A DNA stretch of 64,000 nt from Clostridia bacterium (lineage in GTDB: Bacteria > Bacillota > Clostridia > TANB77 > RGIG9151). A program made the translations under genes and the position numbers. The stretch is from the NCBI GenBank assembly GCA_017450465.1, contig JAFSUW010000012.1, positions 4,035 through 68,034 of the forward strand. Direction: 5' to 3'. Under the pieces are notes generated by a model. It saw nothing but the letters and a program-made list of their open reading frames with translations. It searched no databases and was not told the origin of the DNA. Shown in pieces: positions 41,716-64,000 of this stretch (positions are counted from its first letter, which is position 1; every line of letters starts with the position of its first letter).

Positions 41716-44700
41716 TTAAAGATTACTGTAGTAATTATATAAGAATGTTACTATTTGTGCACGTGTGCAGTCGTTGTTAGGACTAAATGTTGTCTTTGTT
41801 GTGCCATGAGTAATATTATTTGTATATGCCCATATTACAGAATTAAAGAAGTAATCTTCTTCAGTTACATCAGTAAATGGATTTTCGCCTTCGCTGTTAG
41901 CATTGCTTAAGTTATATAAGAATGTAACTGCTTGAGCACGAGTTACTATATTATCTGGGCTAAATGTTGTTTCTGATGTCCCAGCTGTAACACCATTTTC
42001 GTAAGCCCAAAGAACTGCTTTATAATAATAGTCGTTTTCGTTTACATCAGTAAATGGATTATTAGTTGTAGTTGGTGTTGGTTTTCCTGCAGCGTTCCAA
42101 ATAAATGTAACTGTTTGAGCACGTGTTGCAGAATTATCAGGGCTAAATGTTGTTTTTGATGTGCCACTTGTAATGTTGTGGTCTATTGCCCAATTTACTG
42201 CACCAAAGAAGTAATCTTCTTCATGTACGTCACTAAATTGTAAACCTGAAGTTGTTTCATTTTCTTTGTTTCCTTCGTTTTCTTCGTTTTCACCATCTTC
42301 ATCAATGATAATATATTCTTCAGTAGCAAATGTAGCATTAACTGTTACATCACTATTAGGCATAGAGAAAGTATATTTATTATTTTCACCAGCTAATGTA
42401 ACCTTTTCACCATTTTTAGTAGTTACTTCAATTTTATCAAGTTCATAATTTTCATTTGGAGTTACTGTAAGTGTTATAGTAGTACCTTTTGAAGCACTAG
42501 TAGCACTTGAAGTAACTTTACCATTTTCTATTGTAGCTACTGTAACTTTATAAGTTGTTGGTGAACTACTACCGCCGCCACCACTAGATGTTTTTCTAGT
42601 CCATTGTGCAAATACTGTTGTGTCTTCAGTAAATATTGTGTCAGTTGTGATTTTTGTACCATCAGTTGCTTCAGTATACCATCCCTTGAAGTTATAACCA
42701 GAACGTTGTTTTGTTGGGTTAGGTATTTCATCTAATTTACCATTTGCACCAGTTAATGTAGAGTAAGGTTGTAAAACTTCTTCACCTTCATCAAATGTAA
42801 CTGTATGAGTGTTATTTGGTACATCTATAGCAATTTTTATTTCTGTTCCATCAAGAACGTCTTCAGTTCTTACTGATACAGGTTCATCATCATTTATATA
42901 AACATTTAATTCATCTGCAAATACATATCCGCTTTCTGGTACTAATCCGATAGTAAGATAATATGTATGATCAGCTTCAAATGTATCTGGTGTTCCATAT
43001 TTTTCATCAGTCCATGATGCATAGCTTACTGTGTAATGCTCACCGTCATCAAGCGCAGGTTCAAAATATTCATCACCATGAATTGGAAGTGTAACATTAT
43101 TAAATGCAACTTCTTCGATTAGTATTAGAGCAGGAATATTTGCAATGGTTAAAGTTTGTTCTTCAAAATATTCTGCTTCAAATGTTGCTGTATAAGTAGT
43201 TTCACCAGGTGCTTCTACTGTAGGATCTAATGTTACTTCAGAAATTGTATTTACTTGTTCAGTTTGAATATGAGTTTCATCATTTCCACAAACTCTAGTT
43301 GCGGTAACACTGCTATTATCTGCAGCCCAATCATATGTAGGTTCGCTCCAGTCATGAGTTAATGCAGGAACTACATGAGGTGTTCTGCTAAGTTCTTCGC
43401 CACATGTAGAGCAGTAGATAACTTCGTCATAAGAACCGTCTTCTTCACAAGTAACTGGAACTTCATTTTCAGTTACAGGATCTGCTTCAGTATGACCGGT
43501 AGCAGGAATTTCATTTGGTGTTCTACTAATTTCTTCGCCACAAACTGAGCAGTAGATAACTTCGTCATAAGAACCGTCTTCTTCACAAGTAACTGGAACT
43601 TCATTTTCAGTTACAGCATCAGCTTCTGTATGACCAGTAGCAGGAATTTCATTTGGTGTTCTACTAAGTTCTTCGTTACAGGTAGAGCAGTAGATAACTT
43701 CATCATAAGAACCAGCTTCAGTACAAGTTGGCTCTATAGTATTTTCTTCTACGGGATCAGCTTCAGTGTGACCAGTAGCAGGAATAACCTCATGAGTTCT
43801 ACTAAGTTCTTCACCACATGTAGAGCAGTAAATAACTTCATCGTAAGAACCATCCTCTGTACAAGTTGGATCTACGGTATTTTCTTCTACAGGGTCAGCA
43901 TCAGTGTGACCAGTAGCAGGAATAACATTTGGAGTTCTACTAAGTTCTTCGTTACAGGTAGAGCAGTAGATAACTTCATCATAAGAACCAGCTTCTGTAC
44001 AAGTTGGATCTACAGTATTTTCTTCTACAGGGTCAGCATCAGTGTGACCAGTAGCAGGAATTTCATTTGGTGTCCTACTAAGTTCTTCGCCACAAACTGA
44101 ACAGTAGATAACTTCGTCATAAGAACCAGCTTCTGTACAAGTTGGATCAATAGTGTTTTCTTCTACAGGATCAGCTTCAGTGTGTGAAGCAGGAATAATT
44201 TCTTGAGTTCTACTAAGTTCAACTCCACAGTTAGAACAGTAAACAACTTCGTCATAAGAACCGTCTTCTGTGCAAGTTGCATCAACAGTGTTTTCGGTTA
44301 CAGGATCTGCTTCAGTATGAGCTGATGGTGCTATAAGAACTATTTCAACATCATCAGTAGGAGTACCAGAAACAGTTATTTGTGTTGCAGAATTTCTTGT
44401 AACAGTAACACCGTTTTCTCCATCTACTTCATATGTTTCAGGGAAGCAGTATCCTTCATTAGCTTCGTATACAACATCTGTCATGTCTTCTTCAACAATA
44501 ACATCTTGTTCGTCTTCTCCAGATGTTTTAGTCATATTATCTGCAATTGTTATAGTAACACTATATGTTGATGGTGGATTTGGAACTAAAAATTCAACCA
44601 TCTCGTCACCATCTAGTTTAGAAATGACAAGCGAATTATCTTCATCGCTTCCAGTATATATTACATATTGTTCGCCATCACAAATTACTGTGGTAAATCT

Positions 44701-45723
44701 ATTGTAACCAGATAAAATAGCAGTATCTGCGGTTACATCTTCTACAAATGTTCCATCTTGATAGAAGTTTAATGTAGTACCACTAATTGTAGCATAATAA
44801 ATTTCTGAATCATCTATTGTTATATCAGCGGCTGTTACTGTTGTAGTTAATTCTGTTTCTTCAATTTTTACGTTGTCATTAACAACAAAATATTTTCCGC
44901 TTTGACTTAATAAAGTATAGAAATCTGTACCATCGCTACATACATCAACAACTCTACCACTACTATTAGTGTCTAGAGAAGTACCATTGGCAGTGAAGTG
45001 AAAAGCGTAGCCATTCCATGCACCTGAACCATTAGTCCAGTCATATGTATGAATATCAAATGAAACTTGAACTTTTTCATCTCCAGCAGCAATTTTTATA
45101 GGAGCAACCATTTCATCATACCATCTGCCCCAACTATCGCCGTAACCAGTACAATTTGCTATAACTGTTTTTACAAATTTGCCAGATGCATTTGTTGCAT
45201 ACATGCCATCTGGTTTTCTGTAACTATCGTCTTCAGCACCTTGAGTGTCAATGTATGATATATAAGCATTTCCTTCATTATCAACACAAATATCTACAGA
45301 TGATAACACACCTACTTTTTCGTTGCAGTTGTTTGATTCGATAATTTCTTCATCTGCCCAGCCAGATCTTCTTTGATACGTGTATGCAATTTCATCATCT
45401 GAATTTACATACGCTACATGTGCAGTACTGCCATCAAGAGCAAGTGCTGCTTCTTTAGCAGTAGGAGCTGTTTCGCCAACTGGTTCTTCAGTCCATTCAT
45501 CATTTGATGGATCATATACACCGTAGTATAAAGCACCACCGCTAATTGTGCCAGAACTTGCTGTGCCACCTTTGATGAACAAAACAGCAATAGTGCCATC
45601 TGGCAAAGTTTCAGCATCCATTAGATAACGTGCGTTATCGCTGGTTGCGAGTACTGTGTTTGGCAATAATGTAATGCAAAAAATAATTGCCATTAAAACA
45701 CAAAAGACTTTTTTTGCTTTCAT
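41716..45723 (-). CDS. Large S-layer-homology (SLH) anchored surface protein with Cys-containing tandem modules
   Basis: Signal peptide. Seven 46-aa repeats. Flg_new-like 'GYNFKGWYTE...FAQW'. Three C-terminal SLH motifs ('F.DV...DYF..AV.WA....IT.GTS.TTFSPDN..TRAQ.VTF'). Confidence 0.85.
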   Translation of the reverse strand: MKAKKVFCVLMAIIFCITLLPNTVLATSDNARYLMDAETLPDGTIAVLFIKGGTASSGTISGGALYYGVYDPSNDEWTEEPVGETAPTAKEAALALDGSTAHVAYVNSDDEIAYTYQRRSGWADEEIIESNNCNEKVGVLSSVDICVDNEGNAYISYIDTQGAEDDSYRKPDGMYATNASGKFVKTVIANCTGYGDSWGRWYDEMVAPIKIAAGDEKVQVSFDIHTYDWTNGSGAWNGYAFHFTANGTSLDTNSSGRVVDVCSDGTDFYTLLSQSGKYFVVNDNVKIEETELTTTVTAADITIDDSEIYYATISGTTLNFYQDGTFVEDVTADTAILSGYNRFTTVICDGEQYVIYTGSDEDNSLVISKLDGDEMVEFLVPNPPSTYSVTITIADNMTKTSGEDEQDVIVEEDMTDVVYEANEGYCFPETYEVDGENGVTVTRNSATQITVSGTPTDDVEIVLIAPSAHTEADPVTENTVDATCTEDGSYDEVVYCSNCGVELSRTQEIIPASHTEADPVEENTIDPTCTEAGSYDEVIYCSVCGEELSRTPNEIPATGHTDADPVEENTVDPTCTEAGSYDEVIYCSTCNEELSRTPNVIPATGHTDADPVEENTVDPTCTEDGSYDEVIYCSTCGEELSRTHEVIPATGHTEADPVEENTIEPTCTEAGSYDEVIYCSTCNEELSRTPNEIPATGHTEADAVTENEVPVTCEEDGSYDEVIYCSVCGEEISRTPNEIPATGHTEADPVTENEVPVTCEEDGSYDEVIYCSTCGEELSRTPHVVPALTHDWSEPTYDWAADNSSVTATRVCGNDETHIQTEQVNTISEVTLDPTVEAPGETTYTATFEAEYFEEQTLTIANIPALILIEEVAFNNVTLPIHGDEYFEPALDDGEHYTVSYASWTDEKYGTPDTFEADHTYYLTIGLVPESGYVFADELNVYINDDEPVSVRTEDVLDGTEIKIAIDVPNNTHTVTFDEGEEVLQPYSTLTGANGKLDEIPNPTKQRSGYNFKGWYTEATDGTKITTDTIFTEDTTVFAQWTRKTSSGGGGSSSPTTYKVTVATIENGKVTSSATSASKGTTITLTVTPNENYELDKIEVTTKNGEKVTLAGENNKYTFSMPNSDVTVNATFATEEYIIIDEDGENEENEGNKENETTSGLQFSDVHEEDYFFGAVNWAIDHNITSGTSKTTFSPDNSATRAQTVTFIWNAAGKPTPTTTNNPFTDVNENDYYYKAVLWAYENGVTAGTSETTFSPDNIVTRAQAVTFLYNLSNANSEGENPFTDVTEEDYFFNSVIWAYTNNITHGTTKTTFSPNNDCTRAQIVTFLYNYYSNL
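43351..44319 (-). repeat. Seven in-frame tandem repeats of 138 bp (46 aa)
   Basis: Unit 'HTEADPVEENTVDPTCTEAGSYDEVIYCSTCGEELSRTPNEIPATG'. Long identical DNA stretches recur with a 138-nt period. Confidence 0.85.
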
Positions 45724-59028: not shown

Positions 59029-60837
59029 ATGGATATAAGAAATATTGCAATAATTGCACACGTTGACCATGGTAAAACAACATTGGTTGATGTAATGTTA
59101 AGGCAAAGTGGAATATTTAGAGATAATGAGCAAGTAGCAGAAAGGGTAATGGATTCAGGCGATTTAGAGCGTGAACGTGGAATTACAATTCTTTCTAAAA
59201 ATACTTCAGTTGTGTATAACGGCACAAAAATCAATATAGTAGATACTCCAGGTCACGCTGATTTTGGTGGAGAAGTTGAACGTGTACTTAAAATGGTAGA
59301 TGGAGTGCTTTTATTAGTTGATGCTTTCGAAGGCCCTATGCCACAAACTAAGTTTGTATTAAGAAAGGCATTACAACTTAATTTAAAACCAATAGTTGTA
59401 ATAAATAAAATAGATAAGCCAAATGCACGTCCATTAGAAGTGGTAGATAAAGTAATAGATTTATTTATTGAACTTGAAGCAACTGATGAACAGCTAGATT
59501 TTCCTGTAATATATGTGTCTGGAAAAGCTGGTGTTGCAAAACTTAATATGGAAGATGAGGCTACTGATTTAAGACCTTTATTTGATATAATAGTTGATAA
59601 AGTTCCAGCTCCACATGGAGATAAAGATAAACCTCTTCAACTTCTTGTATCCAATATTGATTATGATGATTATATTGGAAGAATTGCAGTTGGAAGAATT
59701 GAACGTGGTACAATAAAAAATGGTCAAAATGTAGTATTGTGTGCAGAAGGAAAAGCAAGTAAGAATGGAAAAATTGCTAAGCTATTTTCTTATACAGGCT
59801 TAAAAAGACTTGAAGTAGAAGAGGCTTATGCAGGTGATATTGTTTCTTTTTCAGGTATTACAGATGTAAATATAGGTGACACAGTATGTGACCCAGAATG
59901 CGAAGAGCCACTTCCATTTGTAAATATTGATGAACCAACAGTATCTATGACATTTAGTGTAAATAATGGTCCATTTGCTGGTAAAGAAGGTGAATATGTA
60001 ACATCAAGACATATTCGCGATAGATTATATAAAGAAGTACAAACAAATTTAAGTTTGCGTGTTGAAGATACAGATTCTGCAGATACATTTAAGGTATCAG
60101 GTAGAGGAGAACTTCATTTGTCAGTATTAATAGAAAATATGCGTAGACAAGGTTTTGAACTTTTAGTATCACGTCCAAGTGTTATTTTCAAAGAAATAGA
60201 TGGTGTAATGTGTGAACCAACTGAACATTTAGTTATAGATGTTCCAGAAGAATATGTTGGTGTTGTTATGGAAAAACTAGGCTATAGAAAAGCGGAAATG
60301 ATAAATATGGCACCAGGCACACAAGGTTATACAAGATTAGAGTTTAAAATTCCTTCACGTGGTTTAATAGGGTATAGGTCAGAATTTATGACAGATACTA
60401 AAGGAACAGGTATAATGAACCATTTATTTGATGGGTATCAACCATCAAAGGGTGAAATCCATTCAAGACTTCGTGGAGTATTGGTAGCATTTGAAACAGG
60501 TGAAGCTACAACTTATGGATTATATAATGCTGAAGAAAGAGGAGAACTCTTTATTGGCCCTGGTACACAAGTTTATGAAGGCATGATAGTTGGAATGAAT
60601 GCTAAAAATGAAGATATGGCAGTAAACGTATGTAAGAAAAAACACGTAACAAACATGCGTGCATCAGGTTCTGATGAAGCTTTAAGGCTTTCACCACCAA
60701 GAGTGCTTAGCCTAGAGCAGGCAATTGAATTTATTGCTGATGATGAACTTGTAGAAGTAACACCAACAAATATAAGACTTAGAAAGAGAATATTAAATAA
60801 AGAACAGAGAATGAAATTTGAAAGTAAAAGCAAATAA
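59029..60837 (+). CDS. typA: Translational GTPase TypA/BipA
   Basis: 'NIAIIAHVDHGKTTL', 'DTPGHADF', 'NKID'. Length and C-terminal domain are typical of BipA. Confidence 0.95.
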   Translation: MDIRNIAIIAHVDHGKTTLVDVMLRQSGIFRDNEQVAERVMDSGDLERERGITILSKNTSVVYNGTKINIVDTPGHADFGGEVERVLKMVDGVLLLVDAFEGPMPQTKFVLRKALQLNLKPIVVINKIDKPNARPLEVVDKVIDLFIELEATDEQLDFPVIYVSGKAGVAKLNMEDEATDLRPLFDIIVDKVPAPHGDKDKPLQLLVSNIDYDDYIGRIAVGRIERGTIKNGQNVVLCAEGKASKNGKIAKLFSYTGLKRLEVEEAYAGDIVSFSGITDVNIGDTVCDPECEEPLPFVNIDEPTVSMTFSVNNGPFAGKEGEYVTSRHIRDRLYKEVQTNLSLRVEDTDSADTFKVSGRGELHLSVLIENMRRQGFELLVSRPSVIFKEIDGVMCEPTEHLVIDVPEEYVGVVMEKLGYRKAEMINMAPGTQGYTRLEFKIPSRGLIGYRSEFMTDTKGTGIMNHLFDGYQPSKGEIHSRLRGVLVAFETGEATTYGLYNAEERGELFIGPGTQVYEGMIVGMNAKNEDMAVNVCKKKHVTNMRASGSDEALRLSPPRVLSLEQAIEFIADDELVEVTPTNIRLRKRILNKEQRMKFESKSK

Positions 60838-60840
60838 ATA

Positions 60841-60876
60841 AAAACCTCATCACTGTGAAAGGTAGATGAGGTTTTT
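60841..60876. terminator. Bidirectional terminator between typA and the convergent Cys-rich gene
   Basis: A-run, cctcatc...gatgagg, T-run. Confidence 0.7.
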
Positions 60877-60891
60877 ATTTATTTTTATTAA

Positions 60892-62466
60892 TTAATAGCC
60901 ATATCCGATTACGTTATGCCACCACATATCGTTTGTACCTAATATTGGATCATCTCTTCCAATTATCATAACATTTTTACTTTTTACTAATGCCTGATAA
61001 TGGGAGTTTTTTCCGTCTGAAGTACCTGCATATTGAAAACGTCCATCCATTTTTTCTTCAAGGATTTGAGCTTCTGACGTATTAGTGAAAACATTATACA
61101 TTGCAATATATGTCATTATTAATTTTTCAGTGGATTCTCGATCATAAGCATCTACTGCTTTATTAGGGTTTAAACAATCATTAGAATAAGTTAGAGCTTT
61201 ATAGATTGATGTTAAATTGCCTAAATTATTATAATAATCGGGACGATTTAGGTGAGCTACAATAGGAAGCATTGATTGCTCTAAGTCAGTGGAGCCTCTT
61301 CCAATTTCGTTATAATCAACGTTAAACCATATTTTCATATCATTTCCAGAAAGATCAAATGATACAGTTTCATATCTGTTTGAGTTTGAATTTTGATATG
61401 CATATTCAAATTTATATCCATTTTGAATCCAGCCATCTACAGTATTTATAATTCTTTGTAATTCAGCAGATGAATATCCTGATATTCCTTCATTATTTGT
61501 TGTAGCAGAAGTTGGATGCGTGAAAGCTTGGTTACAAATATCACATATGTTAGTAGCATTAGTGTTAGAATGAACACCATATTCTGTCTTATTACATATG
61601 ATACAAGTTCTAAAGTGCATAGTTTCATCGAATTTATCATAGTTACTCCAATTGTGTTTACATGCAACATTACAAATTTGACATATGCCATTTGTATTAA
61701 ATTGATGTTGATTATTTGGACATTTTAATGTTTGACCACATTTATCACATTCATAGTGATTTGTAGTGCTATTAAAAATACGATCTTGTTCTAAATGTGG
61801 TGAGGGTTTAGTCTCAATATTACATATAGAACATCTACCAATATGATTATTTGCATTATTAGGGTCTATATCGTATTTGTAATCATGATGACCCTCTTTA
61901 CAAACCAATTTTATACTACAGAATTTACATCTAAATGGTCCAGTTAATTGGTCTTCATAATATTCATGAGTTAACATAGCTGTTTTATAGCCACATGTTT
62001 TACAAGTGCCAATATGTGTGTCATTATTTTTTTTGTTTGTAGATGCAGTATATGTTAATTCATGTTTTATTTGAACTGTTATTTTGCCACATTCACATTT
62101 ACCAATGTGGAAGTCGGGGCTAGTAGGATCTGGTATATATGTGTATCTATGCTTATGTGTAGTAGTAGGAGTATTTATGCCAGTTTCAGGGGAAAGTACA
62201 ATAATCTTTGGATTCGGTGCACCACACTCACATTTACCAGATAATTTATAAGCGTGAAGAGAAGTCTCTCTATAATTACATCCATTGATACAGGTTTTAA
62301 TATGTTCACTTTGATTTAATGGAGTATAAACCCATTTATGTTCATGTAACTCATAGCCAAATGAAATATTAGAAAGCACTGTTGCATTATTTTCAAGTAA
62401 ATTTGTAATAGCACTACTAATAAAAGTAAGTGCAAAGAAGCTAAAAATTAATAGAAATTTTTTCAT
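60892..62466 (-). CDS. Secreted Cys/His-rich module protein with an uncharacterised C-terminal domain of about 200 aa
   Basis: Signal peptide 'MKKFLLIFSFFALTFISSA'. About ten modules such as 'HIGKCECG....H', 'THIGTCKTCG......H' and 'NHIGRCSICN......H'. GGAGG RBS. Confidence 0.7.
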   Translation of the reverse strand: MKKFLLIFSFFALTFISSAITNLLENNATVLSNISFGYELHEHKWVYTPLNQSEHIKTCINGCNYRETSLHAYKLSGKCECGAPNPKIIVLSPETGINTPTTTHKHRYTYIPDPTSPDFHIGKCECGKITVQIKHELTYTASTNKKNNDTHIGTCKTCGYKTAMLTHEYYEDQLTGPFRCKFCSIKLVCKEGHHDYKYDIDPNNANNHIGRCSICNIETKPSPHLEQDRIFNSTTNHYECDKCGQTLKCPNNQHQFNTNGICQICNVACKHNWSNYDKFDETMHFRTCIICNKTEYGVHSNTNATNICDICNQAFTHPTSATTNNEGISGYSSAELQRIINTVDGWIQNGYKFEYAYQNSNSNRYETVSFDLSGNDMKIWFNVDYNEIGRGSTDLEQSMLPIVAHLNRPDYYNNLGNLTSIYKALTYSNDCLNPNKAVDAYDRESTEKLIMTYIAMYNVFTNTSEAQILEEKMDGRFQYAGTSDGKNSHYQALVKSKNVMIIGRDDPILGTNDMWWHNVIGYGY

Positions 62467-62672
62467 AATTATACCTCCGTAATTGAAAGATATAATGTTT
62501 AGTTAATATTAAAAACCAAACATAAAAACACGGTCGCTCTACAGCGAGAAAATAGTCTATGTAATAATTATATCATATTCAGTTTACATAATCAACAAAA
62601 ATAATAGAATAATTTTTGAATTTGCCAATTTTAATATTGTGATTATACAAAATGTATGTAGTAATATTAACA

Positions 62673-62710
62673 ATATAAAAGCTAGTATTTTAATATACTA
62701 GCTTTTATAT
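62673..62710 (-). terminator. Terminator after the upstream Cys-rich paralog
   Basis: gctagtat-tttaat-atactagc hairpin flanked by A/T runs. Confidence 0.55.
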
Positions 62711-62742
62711 TGTATAACGAATATTTTTATATATTGAGTAAA

Positions 62743-64000
62743 TTATTTGCTACGATCGTATTGTGAAAAATAACTATTACATCTTGTACATCTACCATAA
62801 TAATCGATAAAGTGAGGAACGTATATATAATTCCCGTTTTTATTGTATGAATATCCACCAGTTTTTTTATTAAGTGCAGGTGTTTTACCACAATAAGGAC
62901 ATTCATATGGATAAATATCGGAGTAAATCCAAGTTGTAACTGGTGGAGTATTATTGGATCCAGTTTGGTAATTTATATAGTTGTATATATTTTCATCTGA
63001 TATGAATATTGTGTCTTCGTATCCTGGTTTATTATAATAGCTTAGGAGTGCTTCTACATATCCGTTGTCAAATATTAAATCTGAATACCCTGCATAAGAT
63101 GTTTTTTTCGCCATAACTTGGGCTATTTCCTGACTTTCCTCTGTTTGATTAAGTTTCATTTCTATTGCTCTCCAAACATTAGGATACGAATTAATATTCT
63201 TTCGATAATTATATGGATTATAGGTTATACCATTACCAATAAGCGATGCTACATTGCCAGTAAATCCAGGTCTTTGTAGATATAGTTCTAGACCTCTTAA
63301 TATTTCTTCTGGACTTGCATTTCCAAATTCAGTTCCGAGTAAATAATACCACCCTAATAGATCATAATTTGACATATTATATGATTTATTATTTATAATA
63401 TCAACCATTGGAACAGCAACAGAATAATTTGAAGTTCCGATATTATTCAATAATTCTCCACTTAAAAAAGCAGTTTTCTTATAACAAATATCACAGATAT
63501 TATCTTTATTGTTATCTTTATGAGTTGAGCATGTTACAAGTGGTACTTTACATATGCTACATGTGCCACTGCCATCTTTATTATATTTGTGGTTACCTGA
63601 TTCACTAAAATAATCACAAATACTGCATTTATAGTAATGTTTATCGCTACCTGTAGGACAATCCCATATAAATTCATGTTGACCCTTTATTTCTTGATTA
63701 CAAGTTAAACATTTTCCAGAATGCTGTTTTTTATTTCTTTTCCAGTTCATATTATGGTTAACGCATTTAATTTCTAGGCCACAATCAGGACAAGCAAGAG
63801 TGCCATTTGGATTATATCGATGGTTAATAGGATCTGTTTTTGTATTACAATAAATACACTTTCCAATATGAGTATTATTATCATTAGAATTTACTGTATA
63901 TTTGTAGCTATGGCTTTTATTTTTACATACTAATAGTAAAGAACAATCTTTGCATCTATAAGGACCTTGTGCTTGTCCTTCATTATATTCATGACCTAAG
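62743..64000 (-). CDS. Paralog of 60892-62466. The frame stays open to the window edge, so the 5' end lies outside; the ATG at 63750 is internal.
   Basis: My translation upstream of 63750 continues 'GHEYNEGQAQGPYRCKDCSLLLVCKNKSHSYKYTVNSNDNNTHIGKCIYCNTKTDPINH...' with no stop, collinear with the downstream paralog. Confidence 0.7.
   Translation of the reverse strand, partial: LGHEYNEGQAQGPYRCKDCSLLLVCKNKSHSYKYTVNSNDNNTHIGKCIYCNTKTDPINHRYNPNGTLACPDCGLEIKCVNHNMNWKRNKKQHSGKCLTCNQEIKGQHEFIWDCPTGSDKHYYKCSICDYFSESGNHKYNKDGSGTCSICKVPLVTCSTHKDNNKDNICDICYKKTAFLSGELLNNIGTSNYSVAVPMVDIINNKSYNMSNYDLLGWYYLLGTEFGNASPEEILRGLELYLQRPGFTGNVASLIGNGITYNPYNYRKNINSYPNVWRAIEMKLNQTEESQEIAQVMAKKTSYAGYSDLIFDNGYVEALLSYYNKPGYEDTIFISDENIYNYINYQTGSNNTPPVTTWIYSDIYPYECPYCGKTPALNKKTGGYSYNKNGNYIYVPHFIDYYGRCTRCNSYFSQYDRSK

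Follow-up and report, generated by a model that had tools for sequence, protein, structure and literature searches.

Two adjacent minus-strand genes, referred to here as A and B, occupy the end of the analysed 64,000-nt stretch of DNA (the window), which comes from an uncultured gut Clostridia bacterium. The features of the pair and its surroundings are as follows.

60832..60884, no strand assigned, hairpin between the convergent genes typA and A; inverted repeat with 20-nt arms that are 100% complementary, flanked by A/T runs
60892..62466, minus strand, gene A, complete CDS (524 aa plus stop codon), from the ORF list and translation
60895..61515, minus strand, A residues 318-524, Cys-poor orphan C-terminal domain (the "head"), predicted at low confidence to be mainly helical
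61516..62346, minus strand, A residues 41-317, array of 10 Cys/His knuckle modules with types I and II alternating, a putative zinc-site stalk
62395..62466, minus strand, A residues 1-24, MKK and then 21 uncharged, hydrophobic residues, read from the sequence
62567..62595, minus strand, sigma-70-like promoter candidate for gene A (TTGATT, 17-nt spacer, TG-n-TATAAT), proposed from its position
62670..62713, minus strand, hairpin just downstream of B, a likely terminator; inverted repeat with 22-nt arms that are 95% complementary
62743..64000, minus strand, 3′ part of gene B (residues 170-587 plus stop codon), the ORF continuing past the window
62746..62916, minus strand, B residues 531-587, CxxC-x33-CxxC ribbon (C536, C539, C573, C576), from the sequence
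62917..63471, minus strand, B residues 346-530, paralogous copy of the head, from alignments and the motifs L-x-R-P and Y-A-G-x-S-D
63472..63999, minus strand, B residues 170-345, last 7 of the 11 knuckle modules, from the sequence and the A/B alignment

The ATG of gene A lies 8 nt downstream of a GGAGG sequence, and a protein identical to A is present on 6 metagenome contigs. Residues 1-169 of B lie outside the window, at L001:7961-8467, and a 92.7-kb metagenome scaffold identical to the window gave a full-length B of 587 aa that begins, like A, with a hydrophobic segment (preceded in B by MKKFL). The two proteins are ~40% identical overall (BLASTP, 1e-27; phmmer, 6.6e-50). They are tandem paralogs with a common layout, in which a hydrophobic signal at the N-terminus is followed by 10 or 11 Cys/His knuckle modules and then by a Cys-poor C-terminal domain of ~200 aa. 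The initial annotation had described tandem paralogs of about ten modules each, with a shared C-terminal domain and an additional ribbon on the upstream copy, and all of this was recovered: 10 Cx(1-3)C knuckles were found in A (residues 59 to 308) and 11 in the array of B (residues 65 to 338), which carries further CxxC pairs at 536 and 573 in the ribbon, and the C-terminal domains share 25% identity and the motifs listed above, with no conserved Cys or His.

Modules of two types make up the arrays. Type I has the form H-x-[WYF]-x(9-13)-H-x3-C-x(1,2)-C-x(7-8)-H and type II the form H-x-[YF]-x(5-10)-C-x2-C-x(3-5)-[C]-x(1-4)-H, a third Cys being present in some modules (C189, C249 and C269). A contains the core pattern H-x(2,3)-C-x(1,2)-C 5 times and B 6 times, compared with a mean of ~0.5 and a maximum of 4 in 5000 shuffles. 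When the two arrays are compared, conservation extends to 22 of 23 Cys and 13 of 20 His, versus 81 of 240 other residues (34%). When 26 double modules were aligned, H1, H14, C18, C21 and C38 were invariant and H29 and C41 nearly so, even though module-to-module identity is 22-36%. No direct DNA repeats longer than 32 nt were found within or between the two genes. The His and Cys residues are thus strongly constrained, the earlier description of the modules as metal-ligand-like holds, and the array sites are putative Cys2His2 or Cys3His zinc sites.

A structure of A271-317, predicted with AF2 from the module alignment, reached a pLDDT of 86 and consisted of β-hairpins with the CxxC at a turn; in the double module, strands were placed at 13-18 and 24-28, with isolated bridges. 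The full-length model was unusable (pLDDT 37.8). Small zinc fingers and zinc ribbons (XPA, NrdR, aIF2-beta) were the best Foldseek matches, with E-values of 0.5 or higher; XPA superposed with an rmsd of 1.1 Å over 30 columns (prob 0.97). A GATA-1 match of the A/B profile (E 1.6e-4 for the whole chain, per-domain i-E ~0.4) reflects CxxC spacing only. Like GATA-type, zinc-ribbon and rubredoxin-knuckle fingers, the modules have CxxC knuckles at β-turns and CxxC-x(17-20)-CxxC spacing. Those fingers, however, have C4 sites and work inside the cell as nucleic-acid-binding or redox domains, to which the conserved His and the export signal of A and B are ill suited. None of the Pfam zinc-finger models scored above threshold on A or B, the best Pfam matches, all below cutoff, being HMBD (E 2.1), Lar_restr_allev (E 0.018) and Zn_ribbon_LysW (E 1.7), and A and B were accordingly not assigned to the GATA, zinc-ribbon or treble-clef groups. 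Of the zinc-knuckle/treble-clef likeness seen at first, the treble-clef label has no basis beyond ligand spacing and weak matches.

The modules had also been judged impossible to match to any characterised system. Profile comparisons overturned this for the modules. In a phmmer search of 1.84e9 representative proteins, A retrieved 16 surface-type proteins, all of which matched only through residues ~100-326; the best of them, P0003 (1.9e-10), spanned the full double module. They belong to a repeat family, HWxECxCG / CDxCGY, that occurs in gut Clostridia surface proteins and is uncurated, with members such as MBE5813275.1 (an SLH-domain protein of a Clostridiales bacterium), P0003-P0018 and loci L084-L203. 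The A/B modules aligned with HWxECxCG family modules in hhalign at Prob 95% and E 3.7e-8, and the latter aligned with ZBD2 of the Thomasclavelia ramosa IgA protease at Prob 98.3% and E 1.1e-14. A mixed module profile searched against the PDB matched the IgA protease chain 9qa6_A (2.6e-6) within ZBD2 and ZBD1. The direct hhalign comparison of A/B modules with ZBD2 was weak (Prob 26%, E 7e-4), with H, C, C, H, C and C in register; a profile of A and B alone did not list the IgA protease among PDB matches at E up to 10, and phmmer of A against the PDB gave no match. Membership of the A/B modules consequently depends on transitive links, and this transitive profile evidence, running through family intermediates, indicates that they are homologous to the ZBD/CTD2 family of the IgA protease.

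ZBD1/ZBD2 (CTD2/CTD4) of the T. ramosa enzyme are the only described example of the module, for which there is no Pfam or NCBIfam model. In 2025 they were named putative zinc-binding domains ZBD1/ZBD2 or "metal-associated periscope domains" CTD2/CTD4 (PMC12237041, PMC12415215). They are predicted to form three-stranded sheets bridged by 2His+2Cys or 3Cys+1His sites, and no disulfides were observed in the protease despite its 24 Cys (PMC12237041). By SAXS, CTD2 is a fully extended rod, for which a periscope or stalk role was proposed (PMC12415215); the modules are predicted to make up a rigid rod on which the enzyme stands out from the cell, and both papers term the zinc sites putative (PMC12237041, PMC12415215).

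A and B share with the ZBDs of this M64 protease (UniProt Q9AES2) the grammar H-x-[WY]...H-x3-C-x(1,2)-C...H...C-x2-C...H, Cys2His2 or Cys3His ligand sets that fall outside Pfam and NCBIfam models, and a predicted extracytoplasmic location, in gut Firmicutes, adjoining what would be the cell anchor. They differ in several respects. The A/B modules are of a divergent "HIGxCxxC" subtype, and their short type II modules lack the ~12-residue "ATxxxxG" insertion of the protease. The IgA protease has 3 + 2 subdomains on either side of an Ig-like barrel, placed C-terminally of the enzyme and next to a sortase/transmembrane anchor, whereas in A and B 10-11 uninterrupted modules follow directly on the N-terminal hydrophobic segment and the candidate functional domain is C-terminal. 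With the array N-terminal and the candidate functional domain C-terminal, the polarity of A and B is thus reversed.

The distribution of the module was surveyed by a DNA-pattern scan of species-representative genomes with a narrow motif, which listed at least 120 loci, mostly in gut Clostridia, with the motif in frame at every one. Among 55 complete ORFs sampled from the family, 46 begin with a hydrophobic segment and 29 have, at the C-terminus, a transmembrane segment plus basic tail. These 29 leave a median of 50 residues between the end of the last module and the transmembrane segment; of the 10 lipobox proteins, 8 have their first module beginning 3-16 residues past the lipid-modified Cys. 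Across the sample, family modules adjoin the membrane anchor, whichever end carries it. Partner domains in the family include cohesin, Big_2, Flg_new, BNR and SLH. HWxECxCG / CDxCGY proteins resemble A and B in having homologous modules, signal peptides and modules near the anchor, and they include N-terminally anchored lipoproteins with a C-terminal globular domain. Unlike A and B, however, they carry recognisable anchors (C-terminal transmembrane segment, lipobox, SLH or dockerin) and known partner domains, and the head is unique to the A/B pair.

The export signal noted previously for the complete copy is present in both proteins: each begins with MKK and a 21-22-residue uncharged segment, and the array starts ~20 residues later. 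Residues 1-37 are 57% identical between A and B, above the rest of the protein. From its sequence, residues 1-24 of A could be either a Sec signal peptide (with a possible cleavage site at SSA|IT) or an uncleaved signal anchor; AF2 placed a low-confidence helix at residues 2-32. As had been reported at the outset, A and B contain no lipobox, C-terminal LPXTG-type signal or SLH domain, and we likewise found no C-terminal transmembrane segment. The sole LPXTG-like string is SPETG at A residues 92-96, within a linker, and Cys9 of B was rejected as a lipobox Cys, as it sits in ILFC. Cleavage of the signal peptide would therefore leave A and B with no anchor. An unanchored stalk is harder to rationalise; retention of the N-terminal segment as an anchor is putative.

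The interpretation that we consider moderately probable is that A and B are extracytoplasmic "stalk-and-head" proteins, in which a zinc-stapled, disulfide-free rod displays the orphan head. The proteins would be exported by the Sec pathway, after which the N-terminal hydrophobic segment would be kept as a membrane anchor or cleaved. Residues ~41-317 of A and 47-345 of B would form 10 or 11 successive mini β-sheet modules, each CxxC or CxC knuckle binding one structural Zn2+ together with flanking His (or a third Cys), which predicts that A has ~10 zinc sites and B ~11 plus 1. By stapling neighbouring sheets, these sites may produce a rigid rod without disulfides. Scaled from the 129-residue, 110-Å ZBD1 of the T. 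ramosa IgA protease, such a rod would be ~24 nm long, enough to span a Gram-positive cell wall, and it would hold the ~200 aa orphan domain, as a ligand-binding or enzymatic head, away from the membrane.

Dense, conserved Cys/His ligand sets on an exported protein could also serve extracellular buffering, scavenging or storage of zinc or other metals, with ~10-12 exchangeable sites, as in streptococcal surface zinc-binding proteins. We regard this as quite unlikely. Because the modules belong to the IgA-protease ZBD-type family, the array is likely to be structural, a stalk, rather than a device for exotic metal handling, and relatives place the same modules between unrelated functional domains and the anchor. 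Full Cys2His2/Cys3His tetrahedral sites typify inert structural zinc (argued by PMC12237041, PMC12415215). No zinc transporter or Zur-type gene adjoins the pair, and a regular-expression search of A and B found no HxxHxH histidine-triad motif, which sets them apart from polyhistidine-triad (Pht) zinc-scavenging proteins.

The paired and highly conserved Cys of an exported protein might instead stabilise EGF-like modules through disulfides, with no metal involved. This we find very unlikely, given that H1, H14 and H29 are conserved in register with the Cys pairs in 26 modules, that some modules have an odd number of Cys (C-x2-C-x(3-5)-C plus His), that the host is an anaerobic gut Clostridia bacterium, and that the 24 Cys of the IgA protease form no observed disulfides (PMC12237041).

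A rod projecting a functional domain is also the proposed function of the G5-E stalks of SasG/Aap and of the canonical Periscope Proteins of Gram-positive cocci, to which the IgA protease modules have been likened as single-layer β-sheet modules without a hydrophobic core (PMC12415215). The resemblance to the proposed stalk of A and B is one of function, as these repeats are unrelated to the A/B modules in sequence and fold, and the part played by zinc in Aap is to bring about dimerisation, with His and acidic ligands. Repeats of the canonical periscope type are near-identical in DNA and variable in number, whereas the modules of A and B diverged long ago. Their identity of only 22-36% and the absence of direct DNA repeats longer than 32 nt place A and B outside the canonical Periscope Proteins.

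The proposed zinc-stapled stalk bears on more than this gene pair, as the module is plentiful among the surface proteins that gut Clostridia and their relatives carry, and the narrow motif scan alone places it in at least 120 species genomes. Despite this abundance, its published description is confined to predicted models of one IgA protease in two papers from 2025. The A/B pair demonstrates that the module can run to long arrays of 10-11 units without a break and can occupy the N-terminal, membrane-proximal end. A and B support the idea of a general stalk element of anaerobes in which zinc would replace disulfides, since anaerobes lack extracytoplasmic disulfide formation, and their arrays would be convenient substrates for studies of zinc stoichiometry and rod mechanics. 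Otherwise, A and B are ordinary lineage-specific surface proteins.

The neighbours of the pair are cotF-like genes, TetR and MMPL genes, and housekeeping genes. The hairpin at 60832-60884, between convergent typA and A, is likely to be a bidirectional terminator common to both, in agreement with the initial placement of the cluster next to the typA terminator. The hairpin at 62670-62713 is a likely terminator, which would make separate transcription units of B and A. As matches to the promoter candidate of gene A are no commoner than chance in AT-rich DNA, its position is what recommends it. Immediately upstream of B, on the same strand, lie two small genes, one encoding a Coat_F protein (Pfam, 3.3e-18) and one weakly Coat_F-like. 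Cys-rich proteins are common in the outer layers of clostridial spores, and genes beside a cotF-like pair might encode spore-surface or sporulation proteins. Against this, to which we give very little credence, a hairpin with a T-run behind it lies between the cotF-like pair and B, each of the two genes A and B ends at a likely hairpin terminator of its own, and the promoter candidate for A is of a vegetative type. An N-terminal export signal, present in A and B alike, is normally absent from mother-cell coat proteins, and the relatives of the module are surface proteins of vegetative cells whose anchors are of the SLH, cohesin or transmembrane kind.

The head of the stalk-and-head proteins could not be placed in any family, as was suspected from the start: its only homolog among 1.84e9 representative proteins is that of paralog B, and the head of A had no significant match in Pfam, NCBIfam, PHROG, PADLOC or PDB sequences. 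It is known from only two sequences, its status as a functional globular domain is putative, and the effector-like character first ascribed to it is conjectural. The elements E-x-G-x-G and Y-A-G-x-S-D, ~92 residues apart, had suggested a GH73 N-acetylglucosaminidase, a lead that was rejected; the A/B head profile scored Prob 0.2% in hhalign against the C-terminal domain of E. coli FlgJ, and Pfam Glucosaminidase gave no match at E up to 10. That A and B are secreted polymorphic toxins or bacteriocin-like effectors, with a toxic C-terminal domain and the array as a delivery element or spacer, is also very unlikely, for although the head diverges fastest (25% identity versus 41% for the array) and the tandem paralogs occupy a variable locus that is missing from the closest relatives, neither gene is followed by a small immunity-type ORF (those in the B-A spacer are spurious, at most 29 aa, and A abuts the typA terminator), toxin, defence and phage libraries gave no matches, and no secretion-system genes lie nearby.

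The pair flags a head domain without detectable relatives, and a bolder version of the stalk-and-head reading, which we consider unlikely, is that this head is lineage-specific, has a new fold or activity and binds or modifies a host, dietary or microbial ligand, on an N-anchored rod whose rigidity and display respond to zinc. If so, A and B would be the first ZBD-type stalks in reversed, N-anchored polarity, and gut-lumen zinc would act as a regulator as well as a staple. The ribbon that follows the head in B had as its sole family matches two sub-threshold alignments to Lar_restr_allev (E 0.018 and 0.029).

Genes A and B both lie on the minus strand. In the initial annotation they had been described as a complete copy and a copy that runs off the window, and the open reading frames confirmed this. 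The features of the locus are as follows.

60892-62466, minus strand: gene A, an open reading frame of 524 aa, with a GGAGG ribosome-binding site 8 nt upstream of the ATG
62743 to beyond the window end, minus strand: gene B, an open reading frame
60832-60884: inverted repeat, a hairpin between the convergent A and typA genes
62670-62713: inverted repeat, a hairpin after B
62567-62595: sigma-70-like promoter candidate upstream of A, a pattern match of a kind that occurs at chance frequency in this 30% GC DNA
A residues 318-524 and B residues 346-530: Cys-poor C-terminal "head" domain, recognized by shared motifs

Extension past position 64000 recovered the whole of B (587 aa), along with the neighbours upstream of it, from a 92.7-kb ENA metagenome scaffold (L001, identical to the window) and two Logan contigs carrying the same DNA. 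The proposed tandem paralogy of A and B was borne out by BLASTP (1e-27) and phmmer (6.6e-50), and the two proteins are 57% identical over the first 37 residues, 41% over the Cys/His module array and 25% over the C-terminal domain. Gene conversion was dismissed as the cause of the conserved N-terminus because nucleotide identity there, at 75%, falls short of near-identity. The hairpins after B and between A and typA indicate that A and B are probably separate transcription units. The ~100-nt leader of A, which runs from the promoter candidate to the ribosome-binding site, contains at 62534-62547 on the minus strand a small hairpin of GC-rich sequence (TCGCT-GTAG-AGCGA) with a U-rich tract after it. 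This terminator-like element had no Rfam match and could act as an attenuator. Across 60700-64000, the sole Rfam match was a chance-level ohsC hit on the terminator.

The N-terminus of B reads MKKFL followed by a hydrophobic segment, as in A. Both proteins carry an uncharged N-terminal segment of 21-22 residues, with the array beginning ~20 residues beyond it, and a lipobox is absent from both. Judged from its sequence, the segment may either be cleaved (between SSA and IT in A, and between ASS and LL in B) or retained. Modules 2 and 3 are separated by a Thr/Pro-rich linker in which A has SPETG (residues 92-96, window 62179-62193) and B has TPSTG (residues ~99-103, outside the window), with P, T and G kept. 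These strings resemble the (S/P)PxTG sortase motif of some Clostridia and of the Thomasclavelia ramosa IgA protease (SPQTG); in A and B they are internal, and no transmembrane segment and basic tail follow them.

The arrays comprise 10 CxxC or CxC knuckles in A and 11 in B, where the extra C-terminal ribbon noted earlier in the upstream copy is present as CxxC-x33-CxxC. Two module types alternate along them: type I, H-x-[WYF]-x(9-13)-H-x3-C-x(1,2)-C-x(7-8)-H, and type II, H-x-[YF]-x(5-10)-C-x2-C-x(3-5)-[C]-x(1-4)-H. Successive modules share a His, which closes one and opens the following one, so either two His, or a third Cys and one His, are open to each knuckle. The pattern H-x(2,3)-C-x(1,2)-C occurs five times in A and six times in B, as compared with a mean of ~0.5 and a maximum of 4 in shuffled sequences. 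Conservation of the ligand positions, a check asked for in the initial annotation, was found between A and B: 22 of 23 Cys and 13 of 20 His in the array are kept, versus 34% of other residues. The array shows no DNA-level repeats, so its modules stem from old duplications.

Scans of A, B and a neighbouring 599-aa protein against Pfam, NCBIfam, PHROGs, PADLOC and PDB sequences returned nothing above threshold. When A was searched exhaustively with phmmer against 1.84 billion cluster representatives, B and only 16 further proteins were retrieved, all of the 16 matching through residues ~100-326. These are surface-type proteins that bear cohesin, BspA-LRR or SLH domains and C-terminal transmembrane anchors, and their repeats, of the form H-x-[YW]..W..D...HWxECxCG.......H.D.....CDxCGY...H, are covered by neither Pfam nor NCBIfam. 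In a 26-sequence double-module alignment H1, H14, C18, C21 and C38 are invariant and H29 and C41 nearly so. The resulting profile, searched against PDB sequences, matched the T. ramosa IgA protease chain 9qa6_A (E 2.6e-6) at residues 1075-1133 and 911-966. Profile-profile comparison tied the HWxECxCG modules on one side to those of A/B (Prob 95%, E 3.7e-8) and on the other to the IgA protease (Prob 98.3%, E 1.1e-14); the direct comparison of A/B modules with the protease was weak (Prob 26%, E 7e-4), with the alignment in register. A profile built from A and B alone retrieves only GATA fingers, by CxxC spacing.

A word-indexed homolog search with A, a weak test, returned only A itself and not even B, despite shared exact 6-mers and the presence of B in the representative library, and a word-indexed search with the module profile, of limited sensitivity, gave 7 candidates and no matches. 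No related locus was found with A in species genomes, and a metagenome scan with one alignment yielded poor patterns and no relatives. A scan with another alignment gave only unrelated small high-GC proteins sharing the word GPFRCKFC. These ~119-aa proteins, on high-GC metagenome contigs, contain three repeats NH-x-x-FEG-x-x-x-GPF-x-C-x-x-CG (L204:1076-1129, L205:3378-3431, L206:1535-1894), have that exact word in common with A's type II modules and lack a signal peptide; they could be a case of convergence, or else distantly related cytoplasmic forms of the module.

The matched regions of the IgA protease were described in two papers from 2025. In one, ZBD1 (E879-T1008) and ZBD2 (G1101-T1171) are AI-predicted chains of three-stranded antiparallel sheets with putative zinc sites at the sheet interfaces, each of 2 His and 2 Cys, or in one case 3 Cys and 1 His; the protease has 24 Cys, yet disulfides were not seen, and catalysis can do without the ZBD domains (PMC12237041). 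In the other, the same regions are named CTD2 and CTD4 and proposed as "an uncharacterized periscope domain fold" that projects the protease off the cell surface; CTD2 is a fully extended rod by SAXS, and the putative zinc is, according to the authors, probably purely structural (PMC12415215). Contrary to the earlier statement that no characterised system could be matched, the A/B modules belong, by the transitive chain of profile matches, to a stalk-module family that can be recognised, is widespread and was described only recently. The observation itself held, as did part of its interpretation: A and B are exported proteins whose Cys/His modules very probably serve as structural metal sites. 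What is new is, first, the long uninterrupted module array of A and B; second, the divergent HIGxCxxC subtype, placed N-terminally and close to the membrane; and third, a head domain without relatives.

Structure prediction with AF2 was carried out on full-length A with B as the sole alignment partner (pLDDT 37.8; unusable and not taken to fold search), and on the double module A271-317 with the module alignment (pLDDT 86), which gave beta-hairpins with CxxC at the turn. Foldseek against the PDB returned no significant E-values for the latter, as expected at 47 residues. Its top matches were small zinc-binding domains: XPA (rmsd 1.1 angstrom over 30 columns, prob 0.97) and the NrdR, aIF2-beta and Brf1 ribbons.

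The distribution of the modules was surveyed with a degenerate DNA pattern for D-x3-H-W-x-E-C-x-C-G in one genome per species. At least 120 loci were detected, with the motif in frame in all 120 listed. Clostridia of the gut or rumen (Oscillospiraceae, Lachnospiraceae, Christensenellaceae, Acutalibacteraceae), including Frisingicoccus caecimuris DSM 28559, make up nearly all hosts among the listed loci; others are Collinsella, Erysipelotrichaceae and Acholeplasmatales. Among 55 complete ORFs at these loci, 46 have an N-terminal hydrophobic segment, 29 a C-terminal transmembrane segment and basic tail, and 10 a lipobox. In the 29 C-terminally anchored ORFs, a median of 50 residues separates the last module from the transmembrane segment; in 8 of the 10 lipobox ORFs, the first module begins 3-16 residues past the lipidated Cys and a globular region lies C-terminal to the modules. 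The modules are therefore anchor-proximal in either polarity, as a stalk should be. With an array that starts ~20 residues after the hydrophobic segment, A and B are most like the N-anchored proteins, although they have no lipobox. Two lipoproteins with the same module type (P0005 and P0006) have in common a different C-terminal domain of ~270 aa, ending ...FWAY-x-LANT...MY-x-Y, which is unrelated to the A/B head by BLASTP; this suggests that the same stalk may carry many different heads.

The head of A and B shares the motifs NN-x-G-x-S-x-YS, L-x-R-P and Y-A-G-x-S-D, has no conserved Cys or His, and is helical, at low confidence, in the full-length model of A. The initial annotation could place it in no family, and it stays so: no homolog beyond A and B was found by phmmer among the 1.84 billion representatives or in PDB sequences, a word-indexed search with the head profile (limited sensitivity) gave no matches, and no further copies occur in the window or in 207 loci searched. 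A SpoU_methylase match (E 0.008) was below cutoff and treated as chance. Likeness to GH73 glucosaminidase motifs (E-x-G-x-G ... Y-A-T-D, similar spacing) was rejected, as hhalign against E. coli FlgJ gave Prob 0.2%.

The host is an uncultured Clostridia bacterium of the gut, and the TypA proteins closest to its own are 87% identical and come from chicken, rumen and Hadza gut MAGs. No A/B homolog was found around typA in 80 related genomes; these closest relatives lack A and B and instead have a sigma factor, asp23 and nusB downstream of typA. The locus is therefore lineage-specific. It had no tblastn match in phage and plasmid collections. Past B lie a terminated cotF-like small-gene pair, a divergently transcribed gene for an orphan protein, and TetR and MMPL genes. 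These neighbours and a further surface protein are located as follows.

L001:7373-7814: cotF-like pair upstream of B, 61 aa and 81 aa, the second matching Coat_F (3.3e-18), with its own hairpin after the pair
L001:5267-7066: divergently transcribed protein of 599 aa, without a family match, that begins with a hydrophobic signal
41716-45723 of the window, minus strand: surface protein of 1335 aa that has a signal peptide and Flg_new repeats and ends in three SLH domains

Within the otherwise AT-rich divergent intergenic region, at L001:7170-7270, there is a GC-rich inverted element pair, GTGGCCGATGTGGGCATCGGGCCC and GTGGCCGATGCCCACATCGGCCAT, which looks REP-like or operator-like. The 1335-aa SLH protein contains ~7 near-identical 46-aa repeats, HTEADPVEENTVDPTCTEAGSYDEVIYCSTCGEELSRTPNEIPATG, each with 1 His and 3 Cys, encoded by a 138-bp tandem repeat (43364-44277, 6.7 copies, 83% matches). 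In sequence it is similar to the long "ATxxxxG...CxxCG" subdomain of the IgA protease ZBD, a likeness that is not significant by hhalign (E 0.11). This repeat region has the look of a canonical periscope stalk of variable length, encoded by the genome that also carries A and B.
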